A stretch of 64,000 nucleotides of DNA from a virus. Taxonomy: Duplodnaviria; Caudoviricetes. Shown here piece after piece: positions 1 through 34,045 of this stretch; positions within the stretch are counted from its first letter, which is position 1; the number at the start of each line of letters is the position of its first letter. The notes below the pieces were generated by a model, which did no database searches, had not been told where the DNA came from, and worked only from the letters and a program-made list of their open reading frames with translations. The position numbers and the translations under genes are program-made. The stretch is taken from positions 1-64,000 of the IMG/VR virus record IMGVR_UViG_3300014204_000134. One strand, 5' to 3'.

Positions 1-357
1 GATAAAAGTACTTAAAGATTATGATTCTGATGAAATTATTCTTATGTGGGACGAAGAAGAATTAACTACATTATATGATTTTGTAGATGAATTTTATTTA
101 AAACTTATTGAAAAAATATGTGATGTTATTAAAAGTTATCAAAATGAAATAAAAAATTAATAGCGATAATTGGTTGGCAATGAAGTATCTTCTTTCACTA
201 CAGAAGATATTAATGGAAAAATTATTGGTTTTAAATTGGACTCTATCGCTAGTGTTATAGTTGACATTAAAGAAAGTACCGAATGTATTGAAAATAAATA
301 AAAAATACACAATAAAACTAGGATTTGGTTACTATTTTTGAAAGGAGGAAATATAAT

Positions 358-744
358 ATTATTAAAAAAATAATAAGTTATATAAGAAATATATTTAATA
401 AAAGTAATATTCATACAATTACTTTAACTCCTAAAGGAATTTCATTTTTTAAATATTTAAAAGAAAAAGAAATAAATGAAGATATAAAACCAATAGAAGC
501 ATATGATAAGTTTTTTGATGAATTTGATGCCTATATGACTGAAAATTGTTTAAAATTAGAAAAGGAATTTCTTAAAAATAATTCAAATAAAATATTAAAT
601 ATAAAAATAATTAATAGTAATAAGTGGTATAGAGATTACGTAAATAAAACATTTGATGTTTATGATTATAATAAAAATAATTATTCTTTAATTGGTAAAT
701 GTTTTGGATATTTAATAAAAAAAGAAGATTGTATAGTACTTTAA
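358..744 (+). CDS. hypothetical protein (probable ATT start)
   Basis: SD AGGAGG at 343-348 lies inside track ORF 325..744; ATT is 9 nt downstream; the stop codon lies in a repeat arm. Confidence 0.6.
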   Translation: MIKKIISYIRNIFNKSNIHTITLTPKGISFFKYLKEKEINEDIKPIEAYDKFFDEFDAYMTENCLKLEKEFLKNNSNKILNIKIINSNKWYRDYVNKTFDVYDYNKNNYSLIGKCFGYLIKKEDCIVL

Positions 745-807
745 AATTAGATTTTTATGATAGATGATCGAATGGTCTTAGATATTTCGTTATAGGTGGT
801 GGGATTA

Positions 808-984
808 ATGGAATGCGAACATAAATTTGTACTTTTAGATACGATTAAACGAAAAGCAAATGAAAGTTACGGCAACACTTATAAAAGAACAGATATTTTC
901 TTTTGTGAGAAATGCTTAGAAACAAAAGAAGTTAAAAAAGAAAGATATATTGGTTATCGTGAACAAATACCAGATTGGTATTAA
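808..984 (+). CDS. small Zn-ribbon-like hypothetical protein
   Basis: CEH...CEKC; SD AGGTGG. Confidence 0.6.
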   Translation: MECEHKFVLLDTIKRKANESYGNTYKRTDIFFCEKCLETKEVKKERYIGYREQIPDWY

Positions 985-991
985 AAAATAT

Positions 992-1460
992 TAAATGCTG
1001 GATACTGCGCTTATCACTAAACTACCAATAAAATTTAAAGGAGAGAGTGCCAGAGTGAGAGAGTATAATGAGTATGTAGAGGATAAATTTAAAGAGTGGA
1101 ATAATAAGTTTGAAATTCCATATGGTTACGAGTTTCAACTTAAAACAATGTTTGAGTTGGAAGAACAATTTAGAGAAACACCAAAAGAAAACGTAAAAAC
1201 TAAACGTGATATTTTAGACATGATTAATAGAATATATTACAGTATGTATAGATTAAAAGAAAAGAAAATAATATTTACAGAAATACCATGTAGACAATGT
1301 TTATTTTTTGATAGAAATATTAAATATGCTCCAGGTACAGAGTTAATGTGTAATAAACCACTAATTAACGAATTAATTTATAGTTGCAATAAGGATAATA
1401 ATTATAAATATTATATATCAAATCTTATTTATAATAAATAATAAATGTATCCAGCATTTA
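992..1460. repeat. 14-bp perfect inverted repeat flanking one ORF
   Basis: TAAATGCTGGATAC (992-1005) and GTATCCAGCATTTA (1447-1460). Confidence 0.8.
995..1441 (+). CDS. hypothetical protein
   Basis: Track ORF; alternative GTG start at 1055. Confidence 0.6.
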   Translation: MLDTALITKLPIKFKGESARVREYNEYVEDKFKEWNNKFEIPYGYEFQLKTMFELEEQFRETPKENVKTKRDILDMINRIYYSMYRLKEKKIIFTEIPCRQCLFFDRNIKYAPGTELMCNKPLINELIYSCNKDNNYKYYISNLIYNK

Positions 1461-1485
1461 TTACCATAAAAAGGAGATTTCATAA

Positions 1486-1644
1486 ATGAATTTACTAATA
1501 AATTTTTGCCACAATCACTGTAAATTTTATAAAGATGGTTGTAATGAAATGTTAAATATAAACAATGCTACTTATTGTCCTGCTGAACATTTTGCAGATT
1601 GGTTATCTAATGGGTTAGAGCAACTAGATTTGAGGCGCAGATAG
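1486..1644 (+). CDS. small Cys-rich hypothetical protein
   Basis: SD AAGGAG + ATG, 52 aa MNLLINFCHNHC... Confidence 0.5.
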   Translation: MNLLINFCHNHCKFYKDGCNEMLNINNATYCPAEHFADWLSNGLEQLDLRRR

Positions 1645-1645
1645 A

Positions 1646-1870
1646 GTGATACGATACGGCAGAAAGGATTGTAACCACATCTGGCGATACAGAAAAGAAA
1701 GTTGGGAGGATGAGTGCATCCCTGCAATTTGCGTTGAGTGTGGAGCGTTTGGGTGCGGTTGTGACTTTAATCATGATGATATACCGAAGGATATTTTCTT
1801 TGGCGAAGGTCAACGGTATGATGCTAATATAAATGGTAAGTGGGTTAATCCGTATATAAAGGAGAAATAA
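1646..1870 (+). CDS. Cys-rich hypothetical protein
   Basis: CNH...CVECG motifs. Confidence 0.55.
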   Translation: MIRYGRKDCNHIWRYRKESWEDECIPAICVECGAFGCGCDFNHDDIPKDIFFGEGQRYDANINGKWVNPYIKEK

Positions 1871-1871
1871 A

Positions 1872-2036
1872 ATGGGTTACAGTGAAAATTTAGTAGATAT
1901 ACTAATTGACAATTTAATTAAAAGAAGTTATTGTCCCGATAGTCTAGGTTTAGAAGTTAAAGATTTTGAGAGTGAATGTAATGAAGAAAGAAATTGTGAA
2001 GACTGTTGGAAAGAAGCATTAAAAGAGGGAAATTGA
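1872..2036 (+). CDS. small Cys-rich hypothetical protein
   Basis: SD AAGGAG + ATG; YCP...CEDCW. Confidence 0.55.
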   Translation: MGYSENLVDILIDNLIKRSYCPDSLGLEVKDFESECNEERNCEDCWKEALKEGN

Positions 2037-2037
2037 G

Positions 2038-2487
2038 ATGAAAATAGGAGATAGAATCAGATGTGATAATGGTCAAATTTATACTTTAGGCGATAGTAAA
2101 GATTATACTTTTACTATAATTAACAAGTCAGGAAAAATTGTAAATGAAGTTATGGATTCATATTTAAAAGAATGTATGAATCGTGATCCTGAAAATATAA
2201 AATATTTATGTGTTGGTAGAGATATATATGATAATTTCATATATGTAAAAGTATTAGAATTAATTGAACCAAGAAAAGGTAAATGTTCACAGTTTGGAAG
2301 ATCTGATGGAATGGATGGTTCTTGTCATTATTGCTTGGAGTTAGAAGAAAAAACATTTGAACTTTGTAATTTAAAAGAGAAATTATTAAGATATATAAAA
2401 AGAAATACAGATATATATTTGGAGTCATGTAATTTTAATAAAAATATGCTTGATAATTTGAAATATTATATTGAAAATATAACATAA
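2038..2487 (+). CDS. hypothetical protein
   Basis: Track ORF; stop codon in repeat arm. Confidence 0.65.
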   Translation: MKIGDRIRCDNGQIYTLGDSKDYTFTIINKSGKIVNEVMDSYLKECMNRDPENIKYLCVGRDIYDNFIYVKVLELIEPRKGKCSQFGRSDGMDGSCHYCLELEEKTFELCNLKEKLLRYIKRNTDIYLESCNFNKNMLDNLKYYIENIT

Positions 2488-2515
2488 AATCTTGTTTTTG
2501 TGATAGGAGAATAAA

Positions 2516-2866
2516 ATGGAAATAAAATTTAGAGCATGGATTAAAGATGAAAATAAAATGGTTCATGGTTATGATGCTACTGCTAATAGTATATTCACAT
2601 GTGGTTTTAGATATAGAAGGAATGAAATTGAACTTATGCAATACACTGGACTTAAAGACCGCAATGATAAAGAAGGTTACAGAGAAGATATTGTAAATCA
2701 TGATAAATATGGCAATTTTATAATTATATGGGACGATGTTGAAGCTAGTTTTATTTTAAAATCAATAGAACAAAAGTATGGTGCTTTACCAATGTCATTA
2801 TTGAAAGATTGTAATATTATTGGGAATGTTTATGATAATCCCGAATTAATACGGTCACAAAAATGA
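2516..2866 (+). CDS. YopX family protein
   Basis: EIKFRAW...LMQYTGLKD...EDIV...IIGNVYDNPEL signature. Confidence 0.9.
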   Translation: MEIKFRAWIKDENKMVHGYDATANSIFTCGFRYRRNEIELMQYTGLKDRNDKEGYREDIVNHDKYGNFIIIWDDVEASFILKSIEQKYGALPMSLLKDCNIIGNVYDNPELIRSQK

Positions 2867-2945
2867 TGTTTTATACCCTATTACCCAAGAGAACATTTCT
2901 ACAAAACCCTGTACTATGAGTAAAACACATATAGAGGAGGAACCT

Positions 2946-3266
2946 ATGTTAAAAGTAAAACAAATAATTAAAAAATGGTTATTAAAAGAAGAATTAGATA
3001 ATTTATTAACAAAAGAATTAGGTGATATTAATAATAGATTAAATAAGTTAGATAATAAGATTTTTAATGTTAATGATAAGATTGATAGATTCTATAACGA
3101 AATATACGATCATAGTATACTTATTTATCAACACAATAAAGATATAATAAAATTATACGAGCATAATAATATGGATTATTCTAAGCAAATAATTTATACT
3201 TTACCTTTATCAACAAGTTCAACAACAAATTTGTCAAGCTCATCAGCTTGGATGGTAATAAAATAA
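2946..3266 (+). CDS. coiled-coil hypothetical protein
   Basis: SD GAGGAGG then ATG at 2946. Confidence 0.6.
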   Translation: MLKVKQIIKKWLLKEELDNLLTKELGDINNRLNKLDNKIFNVNDKIDRFYNEIYDHSILIYQHNKDIIKLYEHNNMDYSKQIIYTLPLSTSSTTNLSSSSAWMVIK

Positions 3267-3279
3267 GGAGTGTTGATTA

Positions 3280-3636
3280 ATGATTAAATTAAGAGATAAT
3301 GATTTTTACTTTACAATGGAAAAATTGCTTTACAATAAATTAAATATGGGTGCTATAAAAAGAGATTTAGTTGATGTTTCATATCTAAGAAGTGCTAGTA
3401 AAACATATACTTTAGTAAAATTTGCAAAAGAAAACGATCTTGATGTTGTAATGGGATTTACTTCTATAGCACATAAAAAAAGAGAAGATTTAAATTATGA
3501 AAGAATTTATGGAGTAGATGAATTAGAAGGGATGCCTAGAAAATCTGTTGTTATTGATGAGGGAATACCGTCTAGTAAATTAAAAACAATAAAAGAAAAC
3601 GGACATAATCTTGTTACTGGTTATTATTGTAGTTAA
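3280..3636 (+). CDS. small degenerate P-loop-like protein
   Basis: RSASKT (Walker A-like) and VVIDEG (Walker B-like). Confidence 0.5.
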   Translation: MIKLRDNDFYFTMEKLLYNKLNMGAIKRDLVDVSYLRSASKTYTLVKFAKENDLDVVMGFTSIAHKKREDLNYERIYGVDELEGMPRKSVVIDEGIPSSKLKTIKENGHNLVTGYYCS

Positions 3637-3683
3637 AATATGGCGATAAAATAGCAATTTTATCTTTATAAAAAGGAGGATAA

Positions 3684-3989
3684 ATGGAATATTTTATTAA
3701 ATGGCTAAAGGCATTTAAACTAATTATTAGTTTAGAATATAGTACATTTCATTTTGGTTTATTATTTTTTGGTTTTTATTTTATTAAAGAAAGAAAACTA
3801 TATTTTTCTATACACTTATGGTTTCCCAAATATGCTTTAATAATTACTAATAGTGATAAATATTTCTTTTTAAATTCTGCATATAGATTTTATAAAAAGA
3901 AATTAATAAAAGATTTTAACTTTTATATACTACACGTAATTGGTGAAAATGCAACTCAAATTAAAGGGAAAGAAAGTAAATGGGAGTAA
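3684..3989 (+). CDS. hypothetical protein
   Basis: SD AGGAG + ATG; bounded by repeat sites. Confidence 0.6.
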   Translation: MEYFIKWLKAFKLIISLEYSTFHFGLLFFGFYFIKERKLYFSIHLWFPKYALIITNSDKYFFLNSAYRFYKKKLIKDFNFYILHVIGENATQIKGKESKWE

Positions 3990-4022
3990 AATGATGATTT
4001 TGTGATATGAAAGGAGATAAGA

Positions 4023-4394
4023 ATGGAAAAGTATTTGTGGAAATTTGATTTTAACTGTGGACGAATGGGATCATTAGATGGTTTATTTATAGCTACAGAA
4101 AAAGAAGTCAAGAATATAATTGGTAAAAAGGCTTATTTCGGAGAAGTATTGGGTAAACATAGTGAAGTTTACGGTGTTATTGAAAAAACAGAAATAGAAA
4201 AAGTTGATCTTGATTCTGCTGCCGTTGAAAAGGTTAGCAAAATATTGGGCGACACATGGAGTGGTTTTAATCCCCTCAATTATATTAAATATAAATGTCC
4301 TAAATGTGGCGAAGAAGTTCATAACGAAGAGTTTGATAAAAAAAAAGGTTTGTGTTGGGATTGCTCAGATAAAATAGAAGGAGAAATTAAATAA
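4023..4394 (+). CDS. hypothetical protein with C-terminal Zn ribbon
   Basis: GRMGSLDGLF...FGEVLGKHSEV; CPKC...CWDC. Confidence 0.7.
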   Translation: MEKYLWKFDFNCGRMGSLDGLFIATEKEVKNIIGKKAYFGEVLGKHSEVYGVIEKTEIEKVDLDSAAVEKVSKILGDTWSGFNPLNYIKYKCPKCGEEVHNEEFDKKKGLCWDCSDKIEGEIK

Positions 4395-4582
4395 TGTCAA
4401 AATCTTTAACTTTAAATTTAGATAATTTATATGAACAAGGTTATTATTATACTGGTTATGATATAGGTGGTTTGGGTCATAGTATAATCATCAAAGCAGA
4501 AGATAAAGAAAAATTCTTAGATGAATTTGCACGTATTTGGAGATTAGAAGCAGAGAGATTATTAAAAGAAGTTGAAAAATAA
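4394..4582 (+). CDS. hypothetical protein
   Basis: Coupled to upstream ORF. Confidence 0.55.
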   Translation: MSKSLTLNLDNLYEQGYYYTGYDIGGLGHSIIIKAEDKEKFLDEFARIWRLEAERLLKEVEK

Positions 4583-4968
4583 AGAAGTATTTTGTGAGAT
4601 AAGAAATTGGAAGGAAGTAATTAAAATTTGAAAATAAATGAACTTCTTAAATTATATGAAATGTTAAGTTTTTGTTTAGGATATTTTAAAAACAAAGAAG
4701 ATGTAGATGAAGAATTTGTTGATATAGCTGATTGTTTTCATTATGTAAAAGAAGAATTAGATAGAATGTTAAAGAAAGAAAATATATCTTAAAAGAGGCA
4801 TTTTGTTCTCTATAAAACAATAACACCCTCCTTGTACTTTGGAGAGAGCTATTGTTGCACAAAATATATCCTTGATGATAATATTATAAGTTAGTTTATA
4901 ATAAAATATACTTAGTAAATTATGGTAATAAATTTGAACTTTTGTGACCATTGAAAGGAGATTAATCA

Positions 4969-5298
4969 TTGGATATAGTTAAAACTACTACTATATTAGA
5001 TGACAATGGAATTGATATTAAAGATAAAATATCTCTATTTCATCTAAGAGTTAAAAACAAAAAACATAAATTAGATGGTGCATATGGTGTTTCAAGTGCA
5101 GAACGCGATCCGGGTGGATTCTATGAAGTAATATCAGATATTTATTTAATGGGAATATATGAAGGCAATAGTATTATTACAGAATTTAATTATCCTTATA
5201 CTGAGCATTTTAATATAGAAAATGAAAATGTTGAATTAATTGATATAAAAATTGTAGATAGTAGAAGTTTTGCAAGAGAATATTTTGAGAATAAGTAA
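4969..5298 (+). CDS. hypothetical protein
   Basis: SD AAAGGAG + TTG. Confidence 0.6.
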   Translation: MDIVKTTTILDDNGIDIKDKISLFHLRVKNKKHKLDGAYGVSSAERDPGGFYEVISDIYLMGIYEGNSIITEFNYPYTEHFNIENENVELIDIKIVDSRSFAREYFENK

Positions 5299-5329
5299 TT
5301 TAAGTTTTATTAAAAAGGAGTGATTATAT

Positions 5330-5887
5330 ATCCGAATAGGTATTACGGGAACACATGGCACAGGTAAGACCTCGGTCTGTAAAATATTATCTGAAACTTT
5401 AAATATCCCTTATATTGAAGAACAAGCGAGAATATCTTTTAAAATATTAAACATACAAGATTTAGATATTGCTAGATTAGATAATGATAAATTTTCAAAT
5501 TTTCAACAAGACGTTTTGCGTAGACAAATTAATGAAGAACACAGACATAGGGATAATTTTTTAAGTGATAGGACTACACTTTGTAACTATGCTTATTATG
5601 AAGCAAATACAAAAGATTCTCCTAGAATTAGAATGGGATATCAAGAAATTGCTTTAAATAATTTTATGTTTGGTTATGATTTAGTAATTTATGTTCCAAT
5701 AATCTTTGGATTAATTTTAGATGGAGTTAGAAATAAAGGTGAAGATTATAGATATAAAATAGACTGTATAATACAAAATTATTTAAATTTTAATAAAAAT
5801 GTTTATAAACTAAAATCAGAAGGAATAGAAAACAGAGTTAATGAACTAACTGAAGTGATTAACAAATGGAAAACAAAATTAATTTAA
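5330..5887 (+). CDS. P-loop nucleotide kinase (AAA_28/NadR-type), ATC start
   Basis: (M)RIGITGTHGTGKTS Walker A lies upstream of the track start 5516; SDRT and DGVR motifs; in-frame TGA at 5321; SD AAGGAG. Confidence 0.8.
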   Translation: MRIGITGTHGTGKTSVCKILSETLNIPYIEEQARISFKILNIQDLDIARLDNDKFSNFQQDVLRRQINEEHRHRDNFLSDRTTLCNYAYYEANTKDSPRIRMGYQEIALNNFMFGYDLVIYVPIIFGLILDGVRNKGEDYRYKIDCIIQNYLNFNKNVYKLKSEGIENRVNELTEVINKWKTKLI

Positions 5888-6066
5888 ACCACCTCAAAAC
5901 TATTTATTCCCGAATCATTGACTTAGAAGATAGGGGTCTACCTTTTGAGTGGCACAAACTAAAACCACTTTATAAATTAGAAAACCAAATTCTTAAAGGT
6001 TATCAGTTAACCAAAGAAGATATTATCAGAAATAAACTTGATAAATATGGAGGACTAAATGGGTAA
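5866..6066 (+). CDS. hypothetical protein
   Basis: Track ORF. Confidence 0.5.
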   Translation: MENKINLNHLKTIYSRIIDLEDRGLPFEWHKLKPLYKLENQILKGYQLTKEDIIRNKLDKYGGLNG

Positions 6067-6259
6067 GAAAATACCTGAATCAGAACGTAAATTAAGAAAT
6101 ATTAAACGAGAAAAATATAAAACAAGTACAGATTGTATTGCCTGTTTAAAAAATACTATAGGATGTGATAGGGGTAGATTGTACGTGAGTAGGCTTTTAC
6201 CTGGAAGAGCATATAAGTGTGTACCATGTTTCAAATAAAAAAACTTAGGAGGAAATATA

Positions 6260-6490
6260 TTGAATAGTAGATTATATATTAAAGAATCAGACGAATACAG
6301 TTTAGTATTAGATTGGAATTATAACGATCTAGATGAAACAATAAAAAACTATAAAAAAGATAATAATGAAAAAATATTTTATATGGCAATACAAGATAAC
6401 GAAGACGATTTATGTATAGGTTTAACTTTAGAAGGTATGCAAAAACTACAAAATCACATTGATGAGATGATTAAATATATCATAAATTGA
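6260..6490 (+). CDS. hypothetical protein
   Basis: SD AGGAGG + TTG. Confidence 0.55.
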   Translation: MNSRLYIKESDEYSLVLDWNYNDLDETIKNYKKDNNEKIFYMAIQDNEDDLCIGLTLEGMQKLQNHIDEMIKYIIN

Positions 6491-6527
6491 GCGATTTATT
6501 ACTATTTTGAGGTTTATATTATAAGGG

Positions 6528-6860
6528 GTGATTTATATTAGTATTGATAAAGACATGATTGAAACAATGATTATTTCAGAATTACATAAAGCAGAAAAGA
6601 AATTTAAACCATTTAATTCAGGTCATGAAGGTTGGGCAATTATTAAGGAAGAAATAGAAGAAATGCAAGAAATATTATATGGTATAGATTATTATATGGA
6701 TGCAATATGGAATTACGTTAGAGAAAATTCAACAACACAACAATTATTTCATGCACAAAAAATGTATGATGTTACTCTAGATATTATTAAGGAAGCAATT
6801 CAAGTTGCTGCTATGTGTAAAAGATTTCAGAAGGATTTAGGTACAGGGGAGATAAAATAA
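6528..6860 (+). CDS. MazG-like all-alpha NTP pyrophosphohydrolase-like protein
   Basis: HEGWAIIKEEIEE...EAIQVAAMC. Confidence 0.55.
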   Translation: MIYISIDKDMIETMIISELHKAEKKFKPFNSGHEGWAIIKEEIEEMQEILYGIDYYMDAIWNYVRENSTTQQLFHAQKMYDVTLDIIKEAIQVAAMCKRFQKDLGTGEIK

Positions 6861-6884
6861 AACATTCATGGTAGGTGAAATAAA

Positions 6885-7295
6885 ATTTTAAAATGGTTTA
6901 AAAATAAATTAAAACAGTGGTTAGATATTATTGAATTAGAAGAAAATACTAGAGATAATTTCTTTTCTATAGATAGACTTAATGGACAAATGGCACAACA
7001 AAAAAACCTTATAGATATTAAATTATCTCATAATGAACAACTAATTAAATCATTTCTTGCAACGTGTAAAACAGGATATGATTTAGGAGTATCAAATTAT
7101 CATAAAAATTGGTGTGTTTTTGTCAAACAGGGTAAAAATCAAGATTTTATAAAATTCATTGATTTAAGCGATATGACAATTGAAGAAATAAGGCATTTTG
7201 AAAAACAATTAGATGCAATAAATCAAAATAAACAGAAAAGATATTATTATATTGATGCTCCAATGGGGATTAAAGATCATTTTATGTATAAATAG
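6885..7295 (+). CDS. hypothetical protein (ATT start)
   Basis: Frame open from in-frame TGA at 6876; SD AGGTGA; N-terminus (M)LKWFKNKLKQWL. Confidence 0.55.
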   Translation: MLKWFKNKLKQWLDIIELEENTRDNFFSIDRLNGQMAQQKNLIDIKLSHNEQLIKSFLATCKTGYDLGVSNYHKNWCVFVKQGKNQDFIKFIDLSDMTIEEIRHFEKQLDAINQNKQKRYYYIDAPMGIKDHFMYK

Positions 7296-7307
7296 GGGGA
7301 TAATTAA

Positions 7308-7559
7308 ATGAATCAATGTTATGATTGTAAAAATAACAAACAGATTGTTAATAATGATAGTTATATGAAACTTAGTTTTAAAGATGCATTATGGTATTAT
7401 GAACGTGGTAAAACAATTGAATGTAGAATATTAAATAATAATGGTGAAATTATTGATTGGGAAAAATACAATATATGTGAAGGATTAAATATAGCTTTAG
7501 AATTTAATGAAATACTAAATGGGCAATGGTATTTAGTTGGTAAAAATATCATTATGTAG
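7308..7559 (+). CDS. hypothetical protein
   Basis: SD AGGGG + ATG. Confidence 0.55.
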   Translation: MNQCYDCKNNKQIVNNDSYMKLSFKDALWYYERGKTIECRILNNNGEIIDWEKYNICEGLNIALEFNEILNGQWYLVGKNIIM

Positions 7560-7592
7560 TATTTAAAGAAATAGAATTATCTATATATAGTA
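7548..7592. promoter_or_regulatory. tandem NrdR-box-like pair
   Basis: ATCATTATGTAGTA (7548, degenerate) and ATCTATATATAGTA (7579), 31-bp period. Confidence 0.5.
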
Positions 7593-7619
7593 TATAAATG
7601 GCAACGAAATTCGCATTTT

Positions 7620-8523: not shown

Positions 8524-8541
8524 TCACAAAACCGTAATTTT

Positions 8542-25520: not shown

Positions 25521-25532
25521 GAAGGTGGTAAT

Positions 25533-25877: not shown

Positions 25878-25906
25878 AATATAGTTTTATAGAAGGAGAA
25901 ATTAAT

Positions 25907-26089: not shown

Positions 26090-26120
26090 TAAATGCAATC
26101 ATTTATGCTAGGAGGTTCCT

Positions 26121-26312: not shown

Positions 26313-26745
26313 TTGTGATCCCCCTACTGAGTGGCCTTTGACTGAAGAATATTTTTATAAGAATAAAGAAGGTATTGATGGATTTATTGATAAGTGTAAA
26401 AAATGCCAAAAGAAATATAATTTACAAAGATATTATGATAAAAATAAAAACTTAAATAAAATATATGATGTTAATGGTAAGAGTAAAGTTCCTATTGTTA
26501 ATGAAGTAAAAATAACTCAAAAAATGTTGAGACAATGGAAAAATGATTTAAAAACTAGATTGGTAATTCAATGCAAAAATTGTGGAGAATTACATGTATT
26601 TAATAAAAATTACGATTTTTATAATTGCGCTTGCAGAAGAAATTTGATTTATTTTTCTAGTGTCAATTTTGTCTGGTCAAAAATTATATTTAGAGATGAA
26701 AAAATGGAAGGTTATTCACTTTTAAAATATGATCCGTATAAATAA
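26287..26745 (+). CDS. Zn-binding hypothetical protein
   Basis: RICNSC...EYFYK...CKKC; CKNC...CAC. Confidence 0.55.
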   Translation: MIKTRICNSCDPPTEWPLTEEYFYKNKEGIDGFIDKCKKCQKKYNLQRYYDKNKNLNKIYDVNGKSKVPIVNEVKITQKMLRQWKNDLKTRLVIQCKNCGELHVFNKNYDFYNCACRRNLIYFSSVNFVWSKIIFRDEKMEGYSLLKYDPYK

Positions 26746-26757
26746 TAAAAATGAGAT

Positions 26758-27417
26758 TTGATGATAGGAGGAATTGTTATAGAAGGAAATTGTTCTTATT
26801 GTAATAAATATGGGAAAATATTAAAATATAATAATATTTATTATTGCGAAAAACATTTTACTCAATTAAAAAGACATGGAAAAATATTAGAAAAAACCAG
26901 ATTAGACAAAAATAACTTAATAATGCATGATGATTATTTTGAAATTGTACTCAGAAATAATAAAAACGAAGATGTGGGACATACATTAGTATCAAATGAT
27001 AAGTTTGAAATAGTTACTAAATATAAATGGAGATTATCTAAAGGATATATTATTACCACAAATAAAAACGGTAAAAATATATTTCTTCATAGATTAATTT
27101 TAAATTTATTAGATACTCCAAATATATTAGTAGATCATACCAATCATAATCCTTTAGATAATAGGAATGAAAATATAAGAAAATGTACATATAGTCAAAA
27201 TAATATGAATTCACGAAAAGAAAAGGGAAATAAATCTAATATTACTGGAGTAGTTTGGGATAAAGCAAGAAATAAATGGAGAGTACAAATAAGAATTAAT
27301 GGGATTATGACCAATCTAGGAAGATATAATGATTTTAAAGAAGCAGCAAAAGTAAGATTAGAAGCTGAAAGAAAATATTTTGGAGAATTTGCTCCTCAGA
27401 AGGATGTGATAATATGA
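26758..27417 (+). CDS. HNH-AP2 homing endonuclease
   Basis: LHRLIL...VDHTNHNPLDNRNENIR...N; AP2 GVVWDKARNKWRVQI. Confidence 0.9.
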   Translation: MMIGGIVIEGNCSYCNKYGKILKYNNIYYCEKHFTQLKRHGKILEKTRLDKNNLIMHDDYFEIVLRNNKNEDVGHTLVSNDKFEIVTKYKWRLSKGYIITTNKNGKNIFLHRLILNLLDTPNILVDHTNHNPLDNRNENIRKCTYSQNNMNSRKEKGNKSNITGVVWDKARNKWRVQIRINGIMTNLGRYNDFKEAAKVRLEAERKYFGEFAPQKDVII

Positions 27418-28031
27418 TAAAGATTGAAAAAATTAGTGTTTATAATTTTGAAAATAGCATAAGAGGTATGCGTAATGCCTTAAAATCATGGGACAGGTCA
27501 GACTCCTATAATTATTATGATCCTGACTTACATTTTAATACTTATATTATTGGTGAAAATGATATGAAACTTGCTTTAAAACTTATTAAAGCAGGATCAG
27601 AACATTCAAAGTTTTGCAGACAAATTTTTATTTCTATGGATATTACTGCTCCTGATTATTGGTGGAAAGAAATGGACACTTATAAAATTAATACAACCGC
27701 AAATAGCACTTCTACAATGCATAAAATTACTTCGAGATTACTTGATATGAATGATTTTAGCATTGATGAATGGGATGATAATGATTTTATGGTTTTAAAT
27801 AATTTAAATCAATTAATAGAAGAATATCAAAATACTAAAGATAAAAATGTATGGAGAAGAATTATACAAAAGTTACCTATGAGCTATAATTATTTAAGAA
27901 CTTGGACAGCAAATTATCAAAATCTTAGAAATATGTATTTTCAACGTAGAAATCATAAATTAGATTGTTGGCAAGATTTCTGTAAAGTAATTGAAGGATT
28001 GCCGTATAGTCAGCTAATAACTATTAGTTAG
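27414..28031 (+). CDS. ThyX/Thy1-like protein
   Basis: IRGMRN...SWDRSDS, HSKFCR, WWKEMDTY, STMH, LPMSY, RRNHKL; the family link is recalled, not searched. Confidence 0.6.
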   Translation: MIKIEKISVYNFENSIRGMRNALKSWDRSDSYNYYDPDLHFNTYIIGENDMKLALKLIKAGSEHSKFCRQIFISMDITAPDYWWKEMDTYKINTTANSTSTMHKITSRLLDMNDFSIDEWDDNDFMVLNNLNQLIEEYQNTKDKNVWRRIIQKLPMSYNYLRTWTANYQNLRNMYFQRRNHKLDCWQDFCKVIEGLPYSQLITIS

Positions 28032-28042
28032 GGAGGATCTTA

Positions 28043-28546
28043 ATGAAAGAAAAGAAAATTTATATCTGTGAAAAATGTGGAGAGGAATTTAATAGAACAA
28101 TTGAATGTGAAAACCACGAAGTTGAATGTATGGATAAAAAATTACAGTATGATAATAATGTAAAAAATACAGTTGTAAAATTAAAACAAAAATACGGTAG
28201 TCTCATTATAAATGCTGAATATAATACTAAAGTAGATATGTCTTCTTGTGAAAATGATATATATTATATTTACAAATTTGAAATTAAATTAGAACTTTCA
28301 AATGGAAATACAGTATTAATTTATGATGGTATGGATAAAGATTTACGGTCGGGAAACTATTTAGAAGAAAATATTATAATCGAATCTGCTAAAAATGAAA
28401 TTGAAAAATGTCTTCCTACAAGTTATGAAGGAATAATTAATTGGAAATATGAAGATGGTTGGAGAATTGATCGGATAGGTGATATGGAAATAAATGACAT
28501 TGTTAATAGATTACGTGGTAGAAAAGTAAAAATTGAAGCAATATAA
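28043..28546 (+). CDS. hypothetical protein with N-terminal C2H2-like finger
   Basis: YICEKCGEEF...CENHE. Confidence 0.6.
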   Translation: MKEKKIYICEKCGEEFNRTIECENHEVECMDKKLQYDNNVKNTVVKLKQKYGSLIINAEYNTKVDMSSCENDIYYIYKFEIKLELSNGNTVLIYDGMDKDLRSGNYLEENIIIESAKNEIEKCLPTSYEGIINWKYEDGWRIDRIGDMEINDIVNRLRGRKVKIEAI

Positions 28547-28580
28547 TAGTAATGAAAGAAAAGTTTTATGGGAGGAAGAT

Positions 28581-28805
28581 TTGATGAATAATTTTTGTAA
28601 TAAAGATTATACAGATTACGAAAAACTTAAAATGTTATTTAATGAATTTGGTATTAATTATGATAGTTATATTGAAAACAATAAACATATAATAAGTTTA
28701 CAAGCACCAGACAAAAAAGGTAAAATAAATGGCTATATTGGTTTTACAGCTATATTTAATTTTAATCAACATGATAAATTTTTAGATGTTGGCATATGGG
28801 AATAA
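28581..28805 (+). CDS. hypothetical protein
   Basis: SD GGGAGG in repeat flank; between two repeat sites. Confidence 0.55.
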   Translation: MMNNFCNKDYTDYEKLKMLFNEFGINYDSYIENNKHIISLQAPDKKGKINGYIGFTAIFNFNQHDKFLDVGIWE

Positions 28806-28832
28806 AAGATACATTTTAAAGGAGTTGATATA

Positions 28833-29126
28833 ATGGCAATAGGTGAATCACAAAATTGTAACACATGTAAATATAGATGGATGACTCAACTGAATTTTAA
28901 TTCTTCCCATGCACCAATAGGAGCATATGAAGCAGATTGTCATTGTGAAATTTGTACACTAATTAAAACTTATAAAAATGCATTAGATTTCGAATCTAAA
29001 ATCAAAGAAAACTTAAAACAACAAATCAAAGACTATATCTACAAACATAAACACCACGCAATGTATTATGATGATGAAGGTAGTTTAGGAGCGCAAAGTT
29101 TGTTGGATTATTTAGAATTGCTTTAG
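28833..29126 (+). CDS. hypothetical protein
   Basis: SD AAAGGAG + ATG. Confidence 0.55.
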   Translation: MAIGESQNCNTCKYRWMTQLNFNSSHAPIGAYEADCHCEICTLIKTYKNALDFESKIKENLKQQIKDYIYKHKHHAMYYDDEGSLGAQSLLDYLELL

Positions 29127-29138
29127 GAAGGTGGTATA

Positions 29139-29486
29139 ATCCTCTTACAAGTCTATACTGCTCAAATAAAATATACTAACCTAAACAAAATTACAAATAA
29201 TCCAGATTATTTAATTCTTGACCAAAACAAAATTTTTTCACCTGTCAGGGGTATCATACTAGGACGTAAAAACGGTAGATTGTCAGATAAACAATTTAAG
29301 CAAATGTATTATGATTTTCTTAAAGAGAGTTATGAAACTAATAAAGAAGAATTTAATTATTTATTGAATAAAGAGAAAATAATAATAGCAAGTAATTCTT
29401 ATTATTACGAATACGCAGATAGAGTATTACTTGCTAAATTTCTTGAAAAACTTGGTGCTGAAATAAAAGGAGAGATTACTATTTGA
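29139..29486 (+). CDS. DUF488-like protein (ATA/ATC start)
   Basis: LQVYTAQ...FSP...GRLSDKQFKQMY...R.LLAKFL; frame open from TAG at 29124. Confidence 0.5.
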   Translation: MLLQVYTAQIKYTNLNKITNNPDYLILDQNKIFSPVRGIILGRKNGRLSDKQFKQMYYDFLKESYETNKEEFNYLLNKEKIIIASNSYYYEYADRVLLAKFLEKLGAEIKGEITI

Positions 29487-29585
29487 ATCAATATGTACCA
29501 ATTAGTATGATGATAATATTTATAATTTGTATGTTTATTACATATAAATTAATGTTTAAATAAAAGGCAACAAAATTTTAGTTTT

Positions 29586-30395
29586 ATGGTAGTAAAGGAA
29601 GTGAAATTAATATTAGATATAAATAAAATATATAATATGAATTGTTTAGAAGGAATGAAATTAATTGATGATAAATCAATTGATATGATATTGTGTGATC
29701 TCCCTTATGGCACTACTGCTTGTAGTTGGGATATTATAATACCATTTAAACCCTTATGGGAACAATATGAAAGAATTATAAAAGATAATGGAACAATATT
29801 ATTATTTGGAAGTGAACCATTTTCGTCATTATTAAGAATTAGTAATTTAAAATTATATAAATATGATTGGATTTGGGAAAAGGGTAGAGCAAGTGGTTTT
29901 GTTCATGCAAAAAATAAACCATTAAAAGCACATGAAAATATATCAGTTTTTTCAAAAGGTACTACAGTACATAAAAATCAATCAAAAAATAGAATGATTT
30001 ATAATCCTCAAATGGAAAAAGGAAAACCATATATAAAGAAAATAACTCAAATAAATACAGGAAAATTAAACCACGAACCATCTGAAGCAAATATAAATTT
30101 TGTTGGAACTATTAATAAGAACAATGGAACAAGATACCCAAGAAGTGTAATTAAATTTTCAATACATAATGTAGGAAATATACATCCAACACAAAAACCA
30201 ATTAATTTATGTGAATATCTAATTAATACATATACTAACGAAAATAAATTAGTCTTAGACAATTGTATGGGAAGCGGAACAACGGCAATTGCATGTATTA
30301 ACACAAATCGAAATTACATAGGTTTTGAGTTAGACACTATATATTGTGATTTAGCAAATAAAAGAATACTAGATGTAGTAGGTAGGGTATTATAA
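29586..30395 (+). CDS. beta-class N4-C/N6-A DNA methyltransferase
   Basis: DCLEGM-like start, DLPY, HPTQKP, DNCMGSGTT. Confidence 0.9.
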   Translation: MVVKEVKLILDINKIYNMNCLEGMKLIDDKSIDMILCDLPYGTTACSWDIIIPFKPLWEQYERIIKDNGTILLFGSEPFSSLLRISNLKLYKYDWIWEKGRASGFVHAKNKPLKAHENISVFSKGTTVHKNQSKNRMIYNPQMEKGKPYIKKITQINTGKLNHEPSEANINFVGTINKNNGTRYPRSVIKFSIHNVGNIHPTQKPINLCEYLINTYTNENKLVLDNCMGSGTTAIACINTNRNYIGFELDTIYCDLANKRILDVVGRVL

Positions 30396-30426
30396 AAATT
30401 CCGTTTTATAGAAAGTGGTAAATTAA

Positions 30427-30807
30427 ATGAAAGAAACAAAAATTAAAGAATTGACTGAAATAAAATGTTTATGTTGCGGATCAAGGGAATTATCTAAACA
30501 TCATGAAACTAGTTACAGCTTAATAGTTTTCCAATGTTCTAAATGTAAATTATTTATACATGCCAATAAAATGTGTTGTTATTATAAAATTTACGCTATG
30601 CCAAGACATACAAATTATTGGGTAGATTGCGGTGATGCAAGTTCTGATTGTGTAGTGTGTGGTGGATTAGCAACAATTAAAAGAGGTAATATTGACAAAT
30701 CAGAATGGGCAAACAGTTGTCGTATTTGTAATGCTAATATACATGTTGATAATTGCGGAGGTTTTTATGAAAAGTATTGTCCAGAGTGTAAAAAATATAT
30801 GGAATAA
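30427..30807 (+). CDS. Cys-rich Zn-binding hypothetical protein
   Basis: Multiple CxxC; between repeat sites. Confidence 0.6.
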   Translation: MKETKIKELTEIKCLCCGSRELSKHHETSYSLIVFQCSKCKLFIHANKMCCYYKIYAMPRHTNYWVDCGDASSDCVVCGGLATIKRGNIDKSEWANSCRICNANIHVDNCGGFYEKYCPECKKYME

Positions 30808-30841
30808 AAAATTTGATTTATGACCAGGAAAGGATAATAAA

Positions 30842-31219
30842 ATGAAACAAAAATATTATGAAAAACAAATTAGTGTAGGTTCTCCTGAACAATATTATTG
30901 GAATGGTATGAAAAAAGATGATAGACAACCAAAATGGAAAGAAGAACGTAAAAAGTATGGTTTTGATGAAAGAGAAACTTGGAGTTTAGAATTTACTTTT
31001 ATTGCATGGATTTATCCAAGATTAAAGATGTATCGTGAAATTGACGTAGGACATCCAATGGATTTCACTAAAGAACAATGGAATGAAATTATTGATGAAA
31101 TGATAGAAGGTTTTGAGTTATATTTGACAGCACAAAATATTTATGATGAAAAAGTAAATGAAAAAGTAGAGAAATCTTTTGATTTATTTAGAGAATATAT
31201 AAAATGTATATGGTGGTAA
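30842..31219 (+). CDS. hypothetical phage protein
   Basis: GFDERETWSL...WNEIIDEMIEGF; between repeat sites. Confidence 0.65.
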   Translation: MKQKYYEKQISVGSPEQYYWNGMKKDDRQPKWKEERKKYGFDERETWSLEFTFIAWIYPRLKMYREIDVGHPMDFTKEQWNEIIDEMIEGFELYLTAQNIYDEKVNEKVEKSFDLFREYIKCIWW

Positions 31220-31241
31220 CGAAATTACGCTTTTGTAATAG

Positions 31242-31583
31242 GTGGTGAATAATATAAAACCAAATTATATTTTCTTTTATAAAAATGATATTGCACTTGA
31301 CGACATTATAAAACATGCTCCATTCTTTTACGATGAACCAATTCAAATAAAAAGAGGTAAAAATGAAGCAAGATTTGAATATGAACATTTTGATTTAAGA
31401 TGTTATAAAATAAAAAATTTAAATTTATCAATGAGAGGTATTAAAACTTGGCAAATTCTTATAGAAGATGAATTATATGATGAAATTAGTCATGAAATAA
31501 TTTATACAGTATTAGCACCAATGATGGTTCCTTATGAACTATTAGGTGGGAGAATCATTAAAGTAAATAAATATACATCATAA
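31242..31583 (+). CDS. hypothetical protein
   Basis: SMRGIKTWQILIEDE...VLAPM; between repeat sites. Confidence 0.55.
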   Translation: MVNNIKPNYIFFYKNDIALDDIIKHAPFFYDEPIQIKRGKNEARFEYEHFDLRCYKIKNLNLSMRGIKTWQILIEDELYDEISHEIIYTVLAPMMVPYELLGGRIIKVNKYTS

Positions 31584-31626
31584 AAACTGCATTTTATAAC
31601 TATTTAAAATTAAGGAGGAATAAATA

Positions 31627-31980
31627 ATGGGATTAACAACAGATAGAAATCATCCAGATTTAGGATATGGGGCAGACGATAAACCAGTAGAACAAAACAA
31701 AGTATATTTGGTTTTATCAGATGAAGAACTTTCTAAAGGTTATGTTAAACCATATCGTACTAGTTATAAACATTTGACATGTGGCACAATTACAACAATG
31801 AATGAAAAGATATCTGCTACTTATGCAAAAGATCCTTGGTTTTATGGATCAACTTATTGTGTCTATTGTAGTATGCATAGACCCCTTATTGAATTTACAT
31901 GGGAACCAGATGGTGAATCAATGAATCCTAACGAATGGTCAGATGAAGAAATGGATAGAGTTATAGGGTTAAAGAAATAG
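31627..31980 (+). CDS. Zn-binding hypothetical protein
   Basis: HLTCG...TYCVYC...H; SD AAGGAGG. Confidence 0.65.
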   Translation: MGLTTDRNHPDLGYGADDKPVEQNKVYLVLSDEELSKGYVKPYRTSYKHLTCGTITTMNEKISATYAKDPWFYGSTYCVYCSMHRPLIEFTWEPDGESMNPNEWSDEEMDRVIGLKK

Positions 31981-32022
31981 AAAAAGAAAGAATAAAATAT
32001 GCGTTTGATGTTAAGTGAGGAG

Positions 32023-32193
32023 ATGTTTATGAGAGATATATTAAAAACTAAAGAAGAAAAAATTCAGTTTATTATTGGGCACTTACAAAGAATGAAAGGG
32101 TTAGAATTTATTGATCACGATGAAATTAGTGCTTGTAATTTAGCAATAAGAAGATTAAAAAGAACTTTGCCTAAAGAGAAAATATTATCATAA
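32023..32193 (+). CDS. hypothetical protein
   Basis: SD GAGGAG; between repeat sites. Confidence 0.45.
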   Translation: MFMRDILKTKEEKIQFIIGHLQRMKGLEFIDHDEISACNLAIRRLKRTLPKEKILS

Positions 32194-32229
32194 AAAATGT
32201 GTGCTTTATAACCATAAAAGGAGAATAAT

Positions 32230-32502
32230 ATGTTTAAAAAATTACTAGAAATATTAGAATTACAAATAAAAGAACTAGAGATGAAAATGGAAATTTTAAA
32301 TGAAATAGATATTGAAAAACAATGGCATTTAGAAACAGGTAAAAAATTTAATAATTTAATGAGTAATTATGCAATATCAGAAGAAGAGTTACTTTCTATT
32401 TCTGAAACAGTATGTAAATTTGTAACTATTACTAGGAAAACCAATATAGATAAATATTTATTTGAAGATGATAAATTAGAAAAACCAAGATTAATAAGGT
32501 AA
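32230..32502 (+). CDS. hypothetical protein
   Basis: SD AAGGAG + ATG; between repeat sites. Confidence 0.55.
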   Translation: MFKKLLEILELQIKELEMKMEILNEIDIEKQWHLETGKKFNNLMSNYAISEEELLSISETVCKFVTITRKTNIDKYLFEDDKLEKPRLIR

Positions 32503-32548
32503 CTAAATTTGGTTTTTATTACCATAGAAAGGAAAAAATAAATATAAA

Positions 32549-32875
32549 ATGAAAGCAAAAATTATAAAAGTATCTAAACCTACATTTTGGTATGTAAATA
32601 AAATAGGAAAAATATTTGAAGTATGTGATGATGACCACTTATTTTATAAAGTATTAAACATTCCAAACACCTACATTTTAAGAGAAGATTGTATAATAAT
32701 TGAAAATAAAGTAGAAATGTATGATTTTAAATGGAAACAATTACATAATAAAACTTTAAAAATATATGTTGGGGAAGACTTAACTAATGGTACTGATTAT
32801 ACTTGTATAACTACTATAGGTGTTGATGTTGATACTGGAGATATGTATTTTTTAAACAACGAAATAATTAAATAG
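32549..32875 (+). CDS. hypothetical protein
   Basis: Track ORF. Confidence 0.55.
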   Translation: MKAKIIKVSKPTFWYVNKIGKIFEVCDDDHLFYKVLNIPNTYILREDCIIIENKVEMYDFKWKQLHNKTLKIYVGEDLTNGTDYTCITTIGVDVDTGDMYFLNNEIIK

Positions 32876-32887
32876 TAGGAGGATAAA

Positions 32888-33085
32888 ATGGATTATTCAA
32901 ACGACAGATTTATATTTACATTTAGTAATAATTGGAAATATAAACAATTTTCTTTAGGTTTTACTTTTGCTAGTGAAGAACGTTTTACTTGTTCTGATGA
33001 AACTGTTGGAATAACTAAGAAAAGAGAATATTATATCGGTTTATATTTAGGATTTTGGCAACTATTTGTTGGAGTAGTAATATGA
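32888..33085 (+). CDS. hypothetical protein
   Basis: SD AGGAGG + ATG. Confidence 0.5.
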   Translation: MDYSNDRFIFTFSNNWKYKQFSLGFTFASEERFTCSDETVGITKKREYYIGLYLGFWQLFVGVVI

Positions 33086-33348
33086 TTAAAATAGTTGAAT
33101 TCCATCACCCAATTGACAATCCACACGAATATCAATGTAGAATAATTAAATATGAAAGTTTTGAAAAATACGCTAACGATTTAGAAAATGGAGAAGCGCA
33201 ATATTTAGGACAATATTCTTTACCTAGAATTTTAAATATTGAATGGGATTTTAATATATTTGATAATTATGTAATAGTTAAATATATTCATCCTATTAAT
33301 CATTTAAAAATTATACATAAAGCATGGATAGTAAATATAGATTTGTAG
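33082..33348 (+). CDS. hypothetical protein
   Basis: ATGA overlap with upstream ORF. Confidence 0.5.
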   Translation: MIKIVEFHHPIDNPHEYQCRIIKYESFEKYANDLENGEAQYLGQYSLPRILNIEWDFNIFDNYVIVKYIHPINHLKIIHKAWIVNIDL

Positions 33349-33403
33349 TAATAAAATCTAATTTCTATACCACTATAGAAATATAAAATAAAGGAGATAA
33401 TTA

Positions 33404-33940
33404 ATGACTTGTATTGCAGGACTTGTAGATAATGGAATAGTTTACATAGGTGGAGATAGTGCAGGAGTAGGAGGAACATCACTTTCTGTACGTGCAGATA
33501 AAAAAGTATTTCAAAATGGTGAATTTATTTTTGGATTTACCACTTCTTTTAGAATGGGACAATTATTAAGATATTCATTTAATCCTCCTAAGAATTATGA
33601 AAATATTGACATTAATAAATTTATGGTTACTAAATTTATCGAATCAGTTAGAAAATGTTTAAAGGATGGTGGATATGCTTATAAAAACAACGAAGTCGAA
33701 GAAGGTGGAACCTTTTTAGTTGGTTACAAAGGAAAATTATTTAGAATTGATTCTGATTATCAAGTAGGAGAAGCATTAATAGAATTTGATGCTGTTGGAT
33801 GTGGAGAAGACATTGCCCTTGGTTCATTATATAGTACTCAAGGACTAGAACCTAAAGAAAGAATATTAAAAGCACTTGAAGCAGCAGAAAGGTTTAGTGC
33901 TGGAGTAAGAAGACCATTTAATGTGGTTGAATTGAAATAA
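33404..33940 (+). CDS. HslV/proteasome-beta-like Ntn-hydrolase
   Basis: N-terminal M-TCIAGL, GGDS, KVF, AVGCG...ALG. Confidence 0.75.
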   Translation: MTCIAGLVDNGIVYIGGDSAGVGGTSLSVRADKKVFQNGEFIFGFTTSFRMGQLLRYSFNPPKNYENIDINKFMVTKFIESVRKCLKDGGYAYKNNEVEEGGTFLVGYKGKLFRIDSDYQVGEALIEFDAVGCGEDIALGSLYSTQGLEPKERILKALEAAERFSAGVRRPFNVVELK

Positions 33941-33944
33941 GACA

Positions 33945-33989
33945 TACTATATATAGTATAATTAGATTTATATAATACTATATATAGAT
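33945..33989. promoter_or_regulatory. tandem NrdR-box-like pair
   Basis: TACTATATATAGTA (33945) and TACTATATATAGAT (33976), 31-bp period. Confidence 0.6.
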
Positions 33990-34045
33990 ATAAAATGGTA
34001 ATAAACTCAGAACTTCATTGCACTATAAAAAGGAGTTGATATTTA

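Follow-up and report, generated by a model that had tools for sequence, protein, structure and literature searches.

Phages can exchange whole genes cleanly at gene boundaries, and how they do so has long been asked. Two views are held: random illegitimate joins are sorted by selection, or the exchange uses dedicated "linker" sequences. The question is raised by a stretch of 64,000 nucleotides (hereafter the window), the first 64 kb of the IMG/VR virus record IMGVR_UViG_3300014204_000134 (100,452 bp, 25–27% GC, an estimated 69% complete, with ~31% missing). In the window, a palindrome of two six-base arms around a six-base centre recurs at the junctions of small accessory genes. An earlier note on this DNA had listed ~37 such sites and read them as an integron- or pdif-like system that shuffles gene cassettes, with operators of a phage repressor, as for MrpR of SPbeta, as the alternative. 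We report here that the palindrome is real and far beyond chance, that it is a conserved trait of the SPbeta/Tsamsa/Geobacillus E3 supergroup of large siphophages, and that homology between related phages ends exactly at its edges. Our leading reading, which we regard as evenly balanced between true and false, is that the sites are crossover points for gene-module exchange among related phages, probably needing matching centres. Exchange points would then be marked by a short, sharp site in a large and widespread supergroup; this includes the tractable SPbeta, and the question is therefore testable with ordinary Bacillus subtilis genetics.

The palindrome and its position

The genes of the record run rightward to ~43 kb and leftward beyond. 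Two arrays of small genes (0.3–11.1 kb and 20.6–34 kb) are in the rightward part, one on either side of a replication core. With the arms written as A[TC][AG]AAA and TTT[TC][AG]T, the pair occurs 17 times in 1–44 kb at a spacing of six bases, and 0–3 times at each other spacing between 0 and 20. In 44–100 kb of the record, the same pair is found 8 times at six bases versus ~1 elsewhere. The reversed arm order gave no peak in the spacing test. The exact form, ATAAAA-N6-TTTTAT, is present in 5 copies for 0.37 expected. The earlier note had proposed a weight-matrix test with a comparison of junctions and gene interiors, and both parts came out in favor of the motif: a half-site matrix finds 22–24 copies in 1–44 kb, compared to 2–3 in Markov simulations, and 21 of the 23 strict copies in the plus-strand gene region fall in the gap from the stop codon of one gene to the Shine-Dalgarno (SD) sequence of its successor, the non-coding share of this region being only 13.2%. 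When up to two mismatches are allowed (≤2), there are 34 non-coding matches at the six-base spacing and ~17 at any other spacing, and for this reason about one third of the 37 sites first listed are at background level. The palindrome is thus present where it had been placed, but the count was inflated, and the robust copies number ~21–25.

The finer observations of the earlier note hold. The upstream stop codon lies within the left arm at 742, 2485, 3987, 8836, 28803, 30393, 30805 and 31581, and the next SD sequence is built into the right flank in copies with a flank of the type GATAGGAG. No copy is present in the replication core (11.1–20.5 kb), and the late region has matches only inside genes within the window (47624, 58643, 63774). 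Each copy has its own spacer: among the centres of any one genome, that of the record included, there are no duplicates, and none is palindromic. The GC content of the centres is 43% in a record of 27% GC (42% versus 30% in Geobacillus virus E3). Since the centres exceed their genome in this respect, selection on the centres themselves is suggested.

The arrays, their sites (no strand assigned) and a repeat associated with two of them are listed below; G004 and L004 are relatives of this phage.

312–11106, plus strand: first accessory-gene array, punctuated by junction sites; includes the YopX gene (2516–2866)
20594–33368, plus strand: second accessory-gene array with junction sites; includes the Dam, Mom, deformylase and N6/N4 methyltransferase genes
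312–329: strict site, ATAAAA-ctagga-TTTGGT, 14 nucleotides upstream of an SD sequence
741–758: weaker variant, TTAAAA..TTTTAT; the left arm holds the stop codon
1466–1483: strict site; the centre, aggaga, doubles as the SD sequence of the next gene
2484–2501: strict site; the left arm holds the stop codon, and GATAGGAG follows
2857–2874: strict site, ACAAAA..TTTTAT, where the YopX gene ends
3646–3663: exact ATAAAA-N6-TTTTAT at a junction
3986–4003: strict site, GTAAAA..TTTTGT; the left arm holds the stop codon
4928–4945: weaker variant; outer flanks palindromic, GGTA..(G)ACC
6482–6499: weaker variant, ATAAAT..ATTTAT; centre TGAGCG common to G004, left flank unrelated
7604–7621: strict site after the promoter-like 82-nucleotide repeat; centre TTCGCA common to G004, flanks unrelated
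8526–8543: strict site, followed by GATAGGAG
8835–8852: exact site; the left arm holds the stop codon, and GATAGGAG follows
9373–9390: weaker variant at a junction
10061–10078: strict site; L004 homology (87% identity) stops exactly at its right edge, 10078
11089–11106: strict site that closes the segment replaced in L004
20594–20611: strict site, ATGAAA..TTTCGT, before the gene 20627–21148, the ortholog of which in G004 is without a site
22272–22289: strict site at a junction
23209–23226: weaker variant, following the Dam gene
24360–24377: exact site, following the second copy of the 82-nucleotide repeat
26745–26762: strict site; G004 homology stops at its left edge, and G004 is without a site there
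28552–28569: strict site at a junction
28802–28819: weaker variant; the left arm holds the stop codon
29570–29587: strict site preceding the N6/N4 methyltransferase gene; G004 homology starts just past the site
30392–30409: exact site with the methyltransferase stop codon in its left arm; the same junction in G004 has a site with another centre
30804–30821: weaker variant; the left arm holds the stop codon
31219–31236: strict site, ACGAAA..TTTTGT
31580–31597: exact site; the left arm holds the stop codon
31992–32009: strict site, ATAAAA..TTTGAT
32502–32519: weaker variant; outer flanks palindromic, GGTA..TACC
33351–33368: weaker variant at the last junction of the array
7554–7635, plus strand: 82-nucleotide promoter-like repeat, copy 1, ending in the site at 7604
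24310–24391, plus strand: 82-nucleotide promoter-like repeat, copy 2, ending in the site at 24360

The 82-nucleotide repeat contains, at 7554–7600 and 24310–24356, the palindrome CTATATATAG and a second box, AT(G/A)TAGTAT, 31 bp upstream, a layout that may be likened to paired NrdR boxes. Blocks related to this repeat also precede sites in another relative, L005.

Anatomy of the site

The arms do not behave as the two sides of a hairpin. RNA folding of 8 sites gave seven values between −0.4 and −1.9 kcal/mol, with z-scores of the sites from −1.2 to +1.3; 2476–2509 folded at −4.3 kcal/mol, and its minimum-energy fold is another pairing rather than an arm–arm stem. Among 47 non-consensus arm cells (49 sites of this phage and two relatives), 4 are compensatory, 20 give wobble pairs and 23 are mismatches. 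An RNA hairpin or terminator was rejected on both grounds, fold stability and covariation. Instead, both arms draw independently on one set of half-site variants (ATAAAA, ACAAAA, ATGAAA, ACGAAA and ATCAAA; consensus AYRAAA). This independent variation argues for duplex DNA that is read by two protein halves. Judged from its sequence, the site is a double-stranded recognition site for a two-part protein, and not a hairpin.

The outer flanks in the record are GGYA on the left and GRTA(GG) on the right, although a few copies have a full palindrome (GGTA..TACC). The SPbeta flanks follow the palindromic pattern T-Y-T-nn-core-nn-A-R-A, which extends the site to 11-6-11, or 28 bp. The geometry of a tyrosine-recombinase core site, which the earlier note had recognized, is borne out: two inverted arms, of 11 bp in SPbeta, surround a centre that is strictly 6 bp.

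Several other readings of the arms and flanks were tried and discarded. Sigma-70 elements, an extended −10 and sigma-54 were rejected, as the spacings misfit by eye and the SD sequence is too close. Hairpin promoters for a virion RNA polymerase of the N4 type were rejected because the 3,400-residue open reading frame is a tape measure protein, and a promoter or terminator of a YonO-type phage RNA polymerase because a YonO homolog is absent from the record and from Tsamsa. The match at 85602 of the record is a chance one, to an ordinary terminator with a GC stem.

Distribution among phages

The phage of the record is of the SPbeta type of large siphophage, on account of its helicase–primase–RecJ order, its PolIII-alpha polymerase, the YopX gene and the long tape measure gene. 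A search that presupposed no motif, over all 5-mer palindromes and all spacings, ranked TAAAA-N6-TTTTA first in SPbeta (34 copies versus 1.6 at other spacings), Tsamsa (23 versus 2.3) and Geobacillus virus E3 (30 versus 4). Counts of the exact motif, each given against a reversed-pattern control, were 10/1 in a Staphylococcus SPbeta-like phage, 13/1 in Clostridium phage c-st, 26/1 in Mammaliicoccus phi127, 28/0 in Bacillus 2S-4 and 26/1 in Leuconostoc phiLM33_01. For the core pattern the corresponding figures were 35/0 in SPR, 23/1 in PBC2 and 29/1 in SPbetaL5, and a viral contig of 15.5 kb (33% GC) holds 12 sites. Among unrelated Firmicute phages, SPO1, SPP1 and A511 have none and phage K has 1, in its terminal repeat. 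The Lactococcus phages 949, AM4 and PMBT69 have only 1–2 sites, and no other palindrome spaced by six bases. Among the papers within reach of our search, which covered the motif, yomM and intergenic palindromes of SPbeta, none describes the junction palindrome.

The placement of the SPbeta copies is that seen in this phage: they coincide with the stop codon of one small early gene, and the SD sequence of the next gene follows within a few bases. Other SPbeta copies separate a terminator from the promoter that follows (aimR, yorE) or occupy gaps between convergent or divergent genes, and these locations point to a role at the level of DNA rather than RNA. Three palindromes (76170, 99497 and 129296 of NC_001884) lie 0–40 bp from MrpR-bound SPBRE promoters, on either side; the promoters are those of aimR, yorE and yosX.

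Footprints of exchange at the sites

The earlier note had proposed to look for breakpoints in relatives, and these do fall at the sites. SPbeta was compared with SPR and SPbetaL5 by megablast. At seven unique ends of homology blocks, the block takes in an entire site and stops ≤1 nucleotide from its outer edge. The expectation is 0.53 when all ends are placed in non-coding DNA, and seven was reached in 0 of 2000 simulations. One 377-bp unit in this comparison has sites at both ends. Centres are shared as well: 23 pairs of sites in SPbeta and SPR have identical centres, compared to 0.3 expected (34 × 35/4096). Of these pairs, only 6 have homology on both flanks, 10 have it on one flank and 7 on neither. 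The common centres (GATGCA, GTAAAA and AGACTG, for example) keep their order while the distances between the sites differ, from which it follows that the genes between fixed addresses have been replaced.

Footprints of the same kind, though fewer, are seen in the lineage of the window. The homology of L004 ends at 10078, and the next 1 kb, up to the site that closes it at 11089, is unrelated DNA. The centres TGAGCG (6482) and TTCGCA (7604) are held in the same order by G004, within unrelated flanks. Shuffling of accessory genes, as had been claimed, is evident as well: the methyltransferase, the 20.6-kb gene, the 26.3-kb gene and the deformylase of G004 are reordered relative to this phage. 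Logan contigs on 16–36 kb contain many short-sided joints, two of which (29592>30828 and 23596>24359) end beside sites; with sides of 22–28 letters these joints are weak and were not counted as evidence.

A separate difference between L004 and the window is a 900-bp insertion (L004:1748–2648) between the orthologs of 11533 and 11626, resembling a repeated sequence at 90–97 kb of the record. A like insert adjoins the primase gene of G004.

A candidate recombinase and other potential binders

The earlier note saw no tyrosine recombinase in the window, and none was found there. Its suggestion to search the rest of the genome led to an Xer-like, catalytically intact protein of 329 amino acids, of the YomM family, at 72314–73303 (minus strand) of the same record; a site at 73367–73384 lies just upstream of its gene. 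The protein has Pfam Phage_integrase (63 bits) and SAM-like N-terminal domains, and its best solved relatives are XerA and XerD. It presents the R-K-H-R-H-Y set and the two-domain build of a tyrosine recombinase, and R176, K214, H280, H307 and Y316 are invariant in an alignment of 7 homologs. Homologs include gp227 of Tsamsa (53% identity), ORF131 of Lactococcus 949 (45%) and YomM of SPbeta (34%). In Tsamsa (KC481682, 130191–131168) and Lactococcus 949 (HM029250, 95220–96212) the YomM-like gene is directly upstream of the tape measure gene; the structural module is an odd place for a recombinase.

A screen of proteins shared by SPbeta with Tsamsa, E3, 949 and the window showed that only YopR-like and HU-like proteins and a few enzymes track the motif. 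The YopR-like and HU-like proteins do so somewhat better than the recombinase, and neither is assignable. The HU-like YonN occurs in E3, c-st and Tsamsa and weakly in 949; it was not found in the incomplete record and is not decisive as a binder.

The neighbor of the recombinase gene is a ToxN-family type III toxin gene (Pfam, 134.8 bits) at 71317–72024 of the record (L003:465–1172, minus strand). The N-terminal part of its open reading frame consists of three copies of a short repeat, most likely translated antitoxin RNA repeats.

Proposed mechanism and alternative explanations

Unique centres that are conserved between phages argue for a mechanism that needs matching centres, and among the mechanisms considered, tyrosine-recombinase chemistry fits best. 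Each arm would be one half-site (AYRAAA). The two arms are exactly 6 bp apart, with a centre that is free to vary and is unique at each junction, and such sites occupy nearly every free junction of the accessory small-gene arrays. A strand swap of the tyrosine-recombinase type across the 6-bp centre would be the most likely chemistry, and only sites of the same centre, or "address", would recombine productively. Exchange of this kind would replace the flanking genes and leave the sites, their centres and the order of the addresses as they were; it would be nature's equivalent of the cassette exchange done with heterospecific lox or FRT sites. For the enzyme, the YomM-family Xer-like recombinase would be the leading candidate. 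The complete proposal, a natural phage-encoded cassette exchange in which this recombinase swaps strands only between same-centre sites, we offer tentatively, as a possibility about which we are more doubtful than confident. If true, co-infecting or resident relatives could trade the genes between two addresses with the gene order unscrambled, which would give modular phage mosaicism an enzymatic basis that is directly testable in SPbeta and Bacillus subtilis.

A number of observations weigh against this reading. Some junctions carry a site in one genome and none in a relative. Most of the evidence comes from the SPbeta family, and little from the lineage of this phage itself (a single exact-edge joint and two common centres). 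Microhomology crossover within the identical 6-bp arms, followed by selection, would yield the same pattern of edges without an enzyme. The outer flanks in this phage are asymmetric, with GGYA on the left and GRTA on the right. The second catalytic arginine is kept in the 329-residue protein, yet it is a lysine in SPbeta YomM and in the staphylococcal homolog. The three Lactococcus phages with 1–2 sites do have a YomM-like recombinase (~45% identity), which means that the recombinase has another core role or that the sites belong to another protein. The YomM-family enzyme is a leading candidate only, with a putative link to the sites, and the sites are predicted targets of protein binding and cleavage.

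The serious rival is a conserved dimeric regulator for which the sites would serve as operators or roadblocks, and which would silence or insulate the accessory early genes; the edge breakpoints would be secondary, from microhomology of the arms and selection to keep sites intact. Palindromic half-sites that vary independently suit a dimeric regulator, the sites at 7604 and 24360 are just downstream of promoter-like repeats, and the SPbeta sites at aimR, yorE and yosX adjoin SPBRE promoters. The essential replication operon is without sites. In the virulent Lactococcus 949 group, the sites and a YopR-like gene are both missing, while the three other genomes in the protein-level comparison (SPbeta, Tsamsa and E3) do have a YopR-like gene. 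A regulator, however, leaves unexplained the letter-for-letter conservation of centres between phages in which both flanks are unrelated, and also the pile-up of block ends at the exact outer edge. Moreover, the same gene may have or lack a preceding site. Repressor specificities usually diversify between phages, yet phages of Bacillus, Clostridium and Leuconostoc all have the same arms. The specific alternative of the earlier note, MrpR-type operators, fails because the known SPbeta repressor recognizes another box. MrpR binds SPBRE at ten SPbeta promoters, with a 15-bp motif by ChAP-seq (PMC10516654), and in the crystal structure the operator is a box of 24–26 bp that is read by a monomer (bioRxiv 10.1101/2025.11.27.690993). 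The motif that we derived from the 10 MrpR-bound promoters is a ACAAATACAAAAAATATGTAT-like asymmetric box unrelated to the junction palindrome, and identity with SPBRE was rejected. A regulator of a more generic kind we consider unlikely, although well worth keeping in view.

Less probable still, and by our estimate improbable, is that host XerC/XerD act on the sites, the arrays then being true pdif-like modules on a phage. The 11-6-11 geometry in SPbeta fits, and so does the fact that the only related lineage without sites infects Lactococcus, which uses XerS instead of XerC/XerD. That contrast, however, depends on a single lineage, and the arms appear to match the Firmicute dif consensus poorly. 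Unrelated phages of the same hosts are without sites. The modules of pdif plasmids are likewise gene units flanked by Xer sites (PMC6449649), but the present sites keep one orientation where pdif sites alternate. Signals at the level of RNA (a translational-coupling hairpin, an RNase site or a translational repressor operator), or a mere by-product of TAA stop codons and U-rich leaders, would agree with the stop codon that is often held by the left arm and with the SD sequence that follows the right arm. Such signals are at odds with the spacing of exactly six bases, the lack of a stable fold and the degeneracy that is symmetric on both arms, which is sensible only for duplex DNA. They also fail to account for the left arm at 7604 and 24360, where no gene ends, and for the SPbeta sites between terminator and promoter (aimR, yorE) or in convergent gaps; we judge them highly improbable. 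Integron-like capture, one of the options of the earlier note, would mean that folded attC-type sites are taken up singly at attI by an IntI-type integrase. It has the overall picture in its favor, namely short gene units in one orientation, each followed by an imperfect palindrome. It fails on the sites themselves, which are fixed at 18 bp rather than variable in length, have no stable fold and show no covariation between the arms (23 of 47 variant arm cells are mismatched). Joints occur at either outer edge of the site and not at a single fixed point, and the SPbeta sites are found in early and late regions and also upstream of promoters. The only match to the Phage_integrase family in the 100-kb record (69% complete) is the Xer-like protein of the late region; no search aimed at attI, Pc or IntI was made. 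Of all the explanations, this one is scarcely credible.

Genomic setting

The replication core between the arrays encodes a DnaB-like helicase, a Toprim primase, RecJ, a class II ribonucleotide reductase and a dUTPase. The second array is followed by an HNH gene, the PolIII-alpha polymerase gene, a large serine recombinase gene and a DndB-like gene. The stretch with the last two is likely the integration module of a temperate phage. The leftward part comprises tail genes, among them the tape measure gene (~3,400 amino acids), and two homing-endonuclease-like genes. The length of the tape measure protein (~3,400–3,500 amino acids) implies a very long tail. The identities that had been given to the YopX, Dam, Mom and N6/N4 methyltransferase genes were verified. 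For arrays of genes of mostly unknown function, the sites are also of use in annotation, as they delimit units of expression and exchange. Features of the window other than those listed above are:

22700–23203, plus strand: Dam, second array
23851–24303, plus strand: Mom, second array
24745–25233, plus strand: phage-encoded peptide deformylase, second array (Pfam, 114 bits)
29586–30395, plus strand: N6/N4 methyltransferase, second array
39942–43059: large serine recombinase (Resolvase, Recombinase and zinc ribbon), then the DndB-like gene
43095–44297 and 52250–53398, minus strand: two homing-endonuclease-like genes (PHROG 12131), inserted among tail genes
53525–64039 (window numbering), minus strand: tape measure protein of ~3,400–3,500 amino acids, with the motif matches 58643 and 63774 inside

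The stretch was found in a public landfill run, the probable source, and in a groundwater study, the latter containing a close relative. Megablast of 11–31 kb against the phage collection gave no match. The scan for close relatives gave 2 loci among viral contigs, and from metagenomes only contigs of 2–7 kb over the helicase gene.

Comparison with known systems

The sites resemble several known elements, each in part. An integron attC site is longer, its length varies from copy to copy, and IntI recombines it with attI as a folded single strand; none of these features is matched here. What integrons and the present arrays have in common is a series of gene cassettes in one orientation, each with an imperfect palindrome. 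The stoperators of mycobacteriophage L5 and Cluster A are 13 bp, asymmetric, oriented with transcription and specific to the immunity group. They are likewise dozens of short protein-binding sites in small intergenic gaps of a temperate phage, whereas the present sites are palindromic and constant across very distant phages. SPBRE, the element of MrpR/SroF, is also a repeated intergenic element of the same phage family, and its binder has the fold of a tyrosine recombinase; it differs in being asymmetric, bound by a monomer and located at ~10 promoters.

The PeSLs of T4-type phages are intergenic repeats in plastic regions of small genes, where they bound indels and replacements (PMC2839356, PMC4122927). 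Similarly, the present sites lie in plastic accessory arrays, and breakpoints between close relatives coincide with the motif. Neither an early sigma-70 promoter nor a stable stem-loop was found at the sites, and there is no room for a promoter, because most sites are directly between a stop codon and an SD sequence. PeSLs are composite units of some tens of bp, with an early promoter and a stem-loop, and are proposed to act through homologous recombination. The present site is instead a palindrome of 18–28 bp, promoterless and without a stable hairpin, with a unique centre in each copy.

The likeness to dif and pdif that the earlier note had seen stands as regards the two arms around a 6-bp centre, but not the orientation of the sites, and binding by an Xer protein is putative. 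The modules of Acinetobacter plasmids also have many sites of two arms and a 6-bp centre that delimit small mobile gene modules; pdif sites are close to the chromosomal dif, are used by the host XerC/XerD and flank the modules in inverse orientation (PMC6449649). Here, the arms are specific to a phage lineage, the enzyme is a candidate only, and in place of the inverse order (C/D then D/C) all junction sites have one orientation (GGYA left, GRTAGG right).

Heterospecific lox and FRT sites have identical arms and different centres; only same-centre sites recombine, and segments swap without rearrangement. Those sites are engineered and their enzyme is known, whereas the need for matching centres in the present phages is deduced solely from the conserved centres between unrelated flanks. 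If the centres do act as addresses, the arrays would be a natural analogue of the engineered heterospecific sites and could provide a tool for the modular building of phage genomes.

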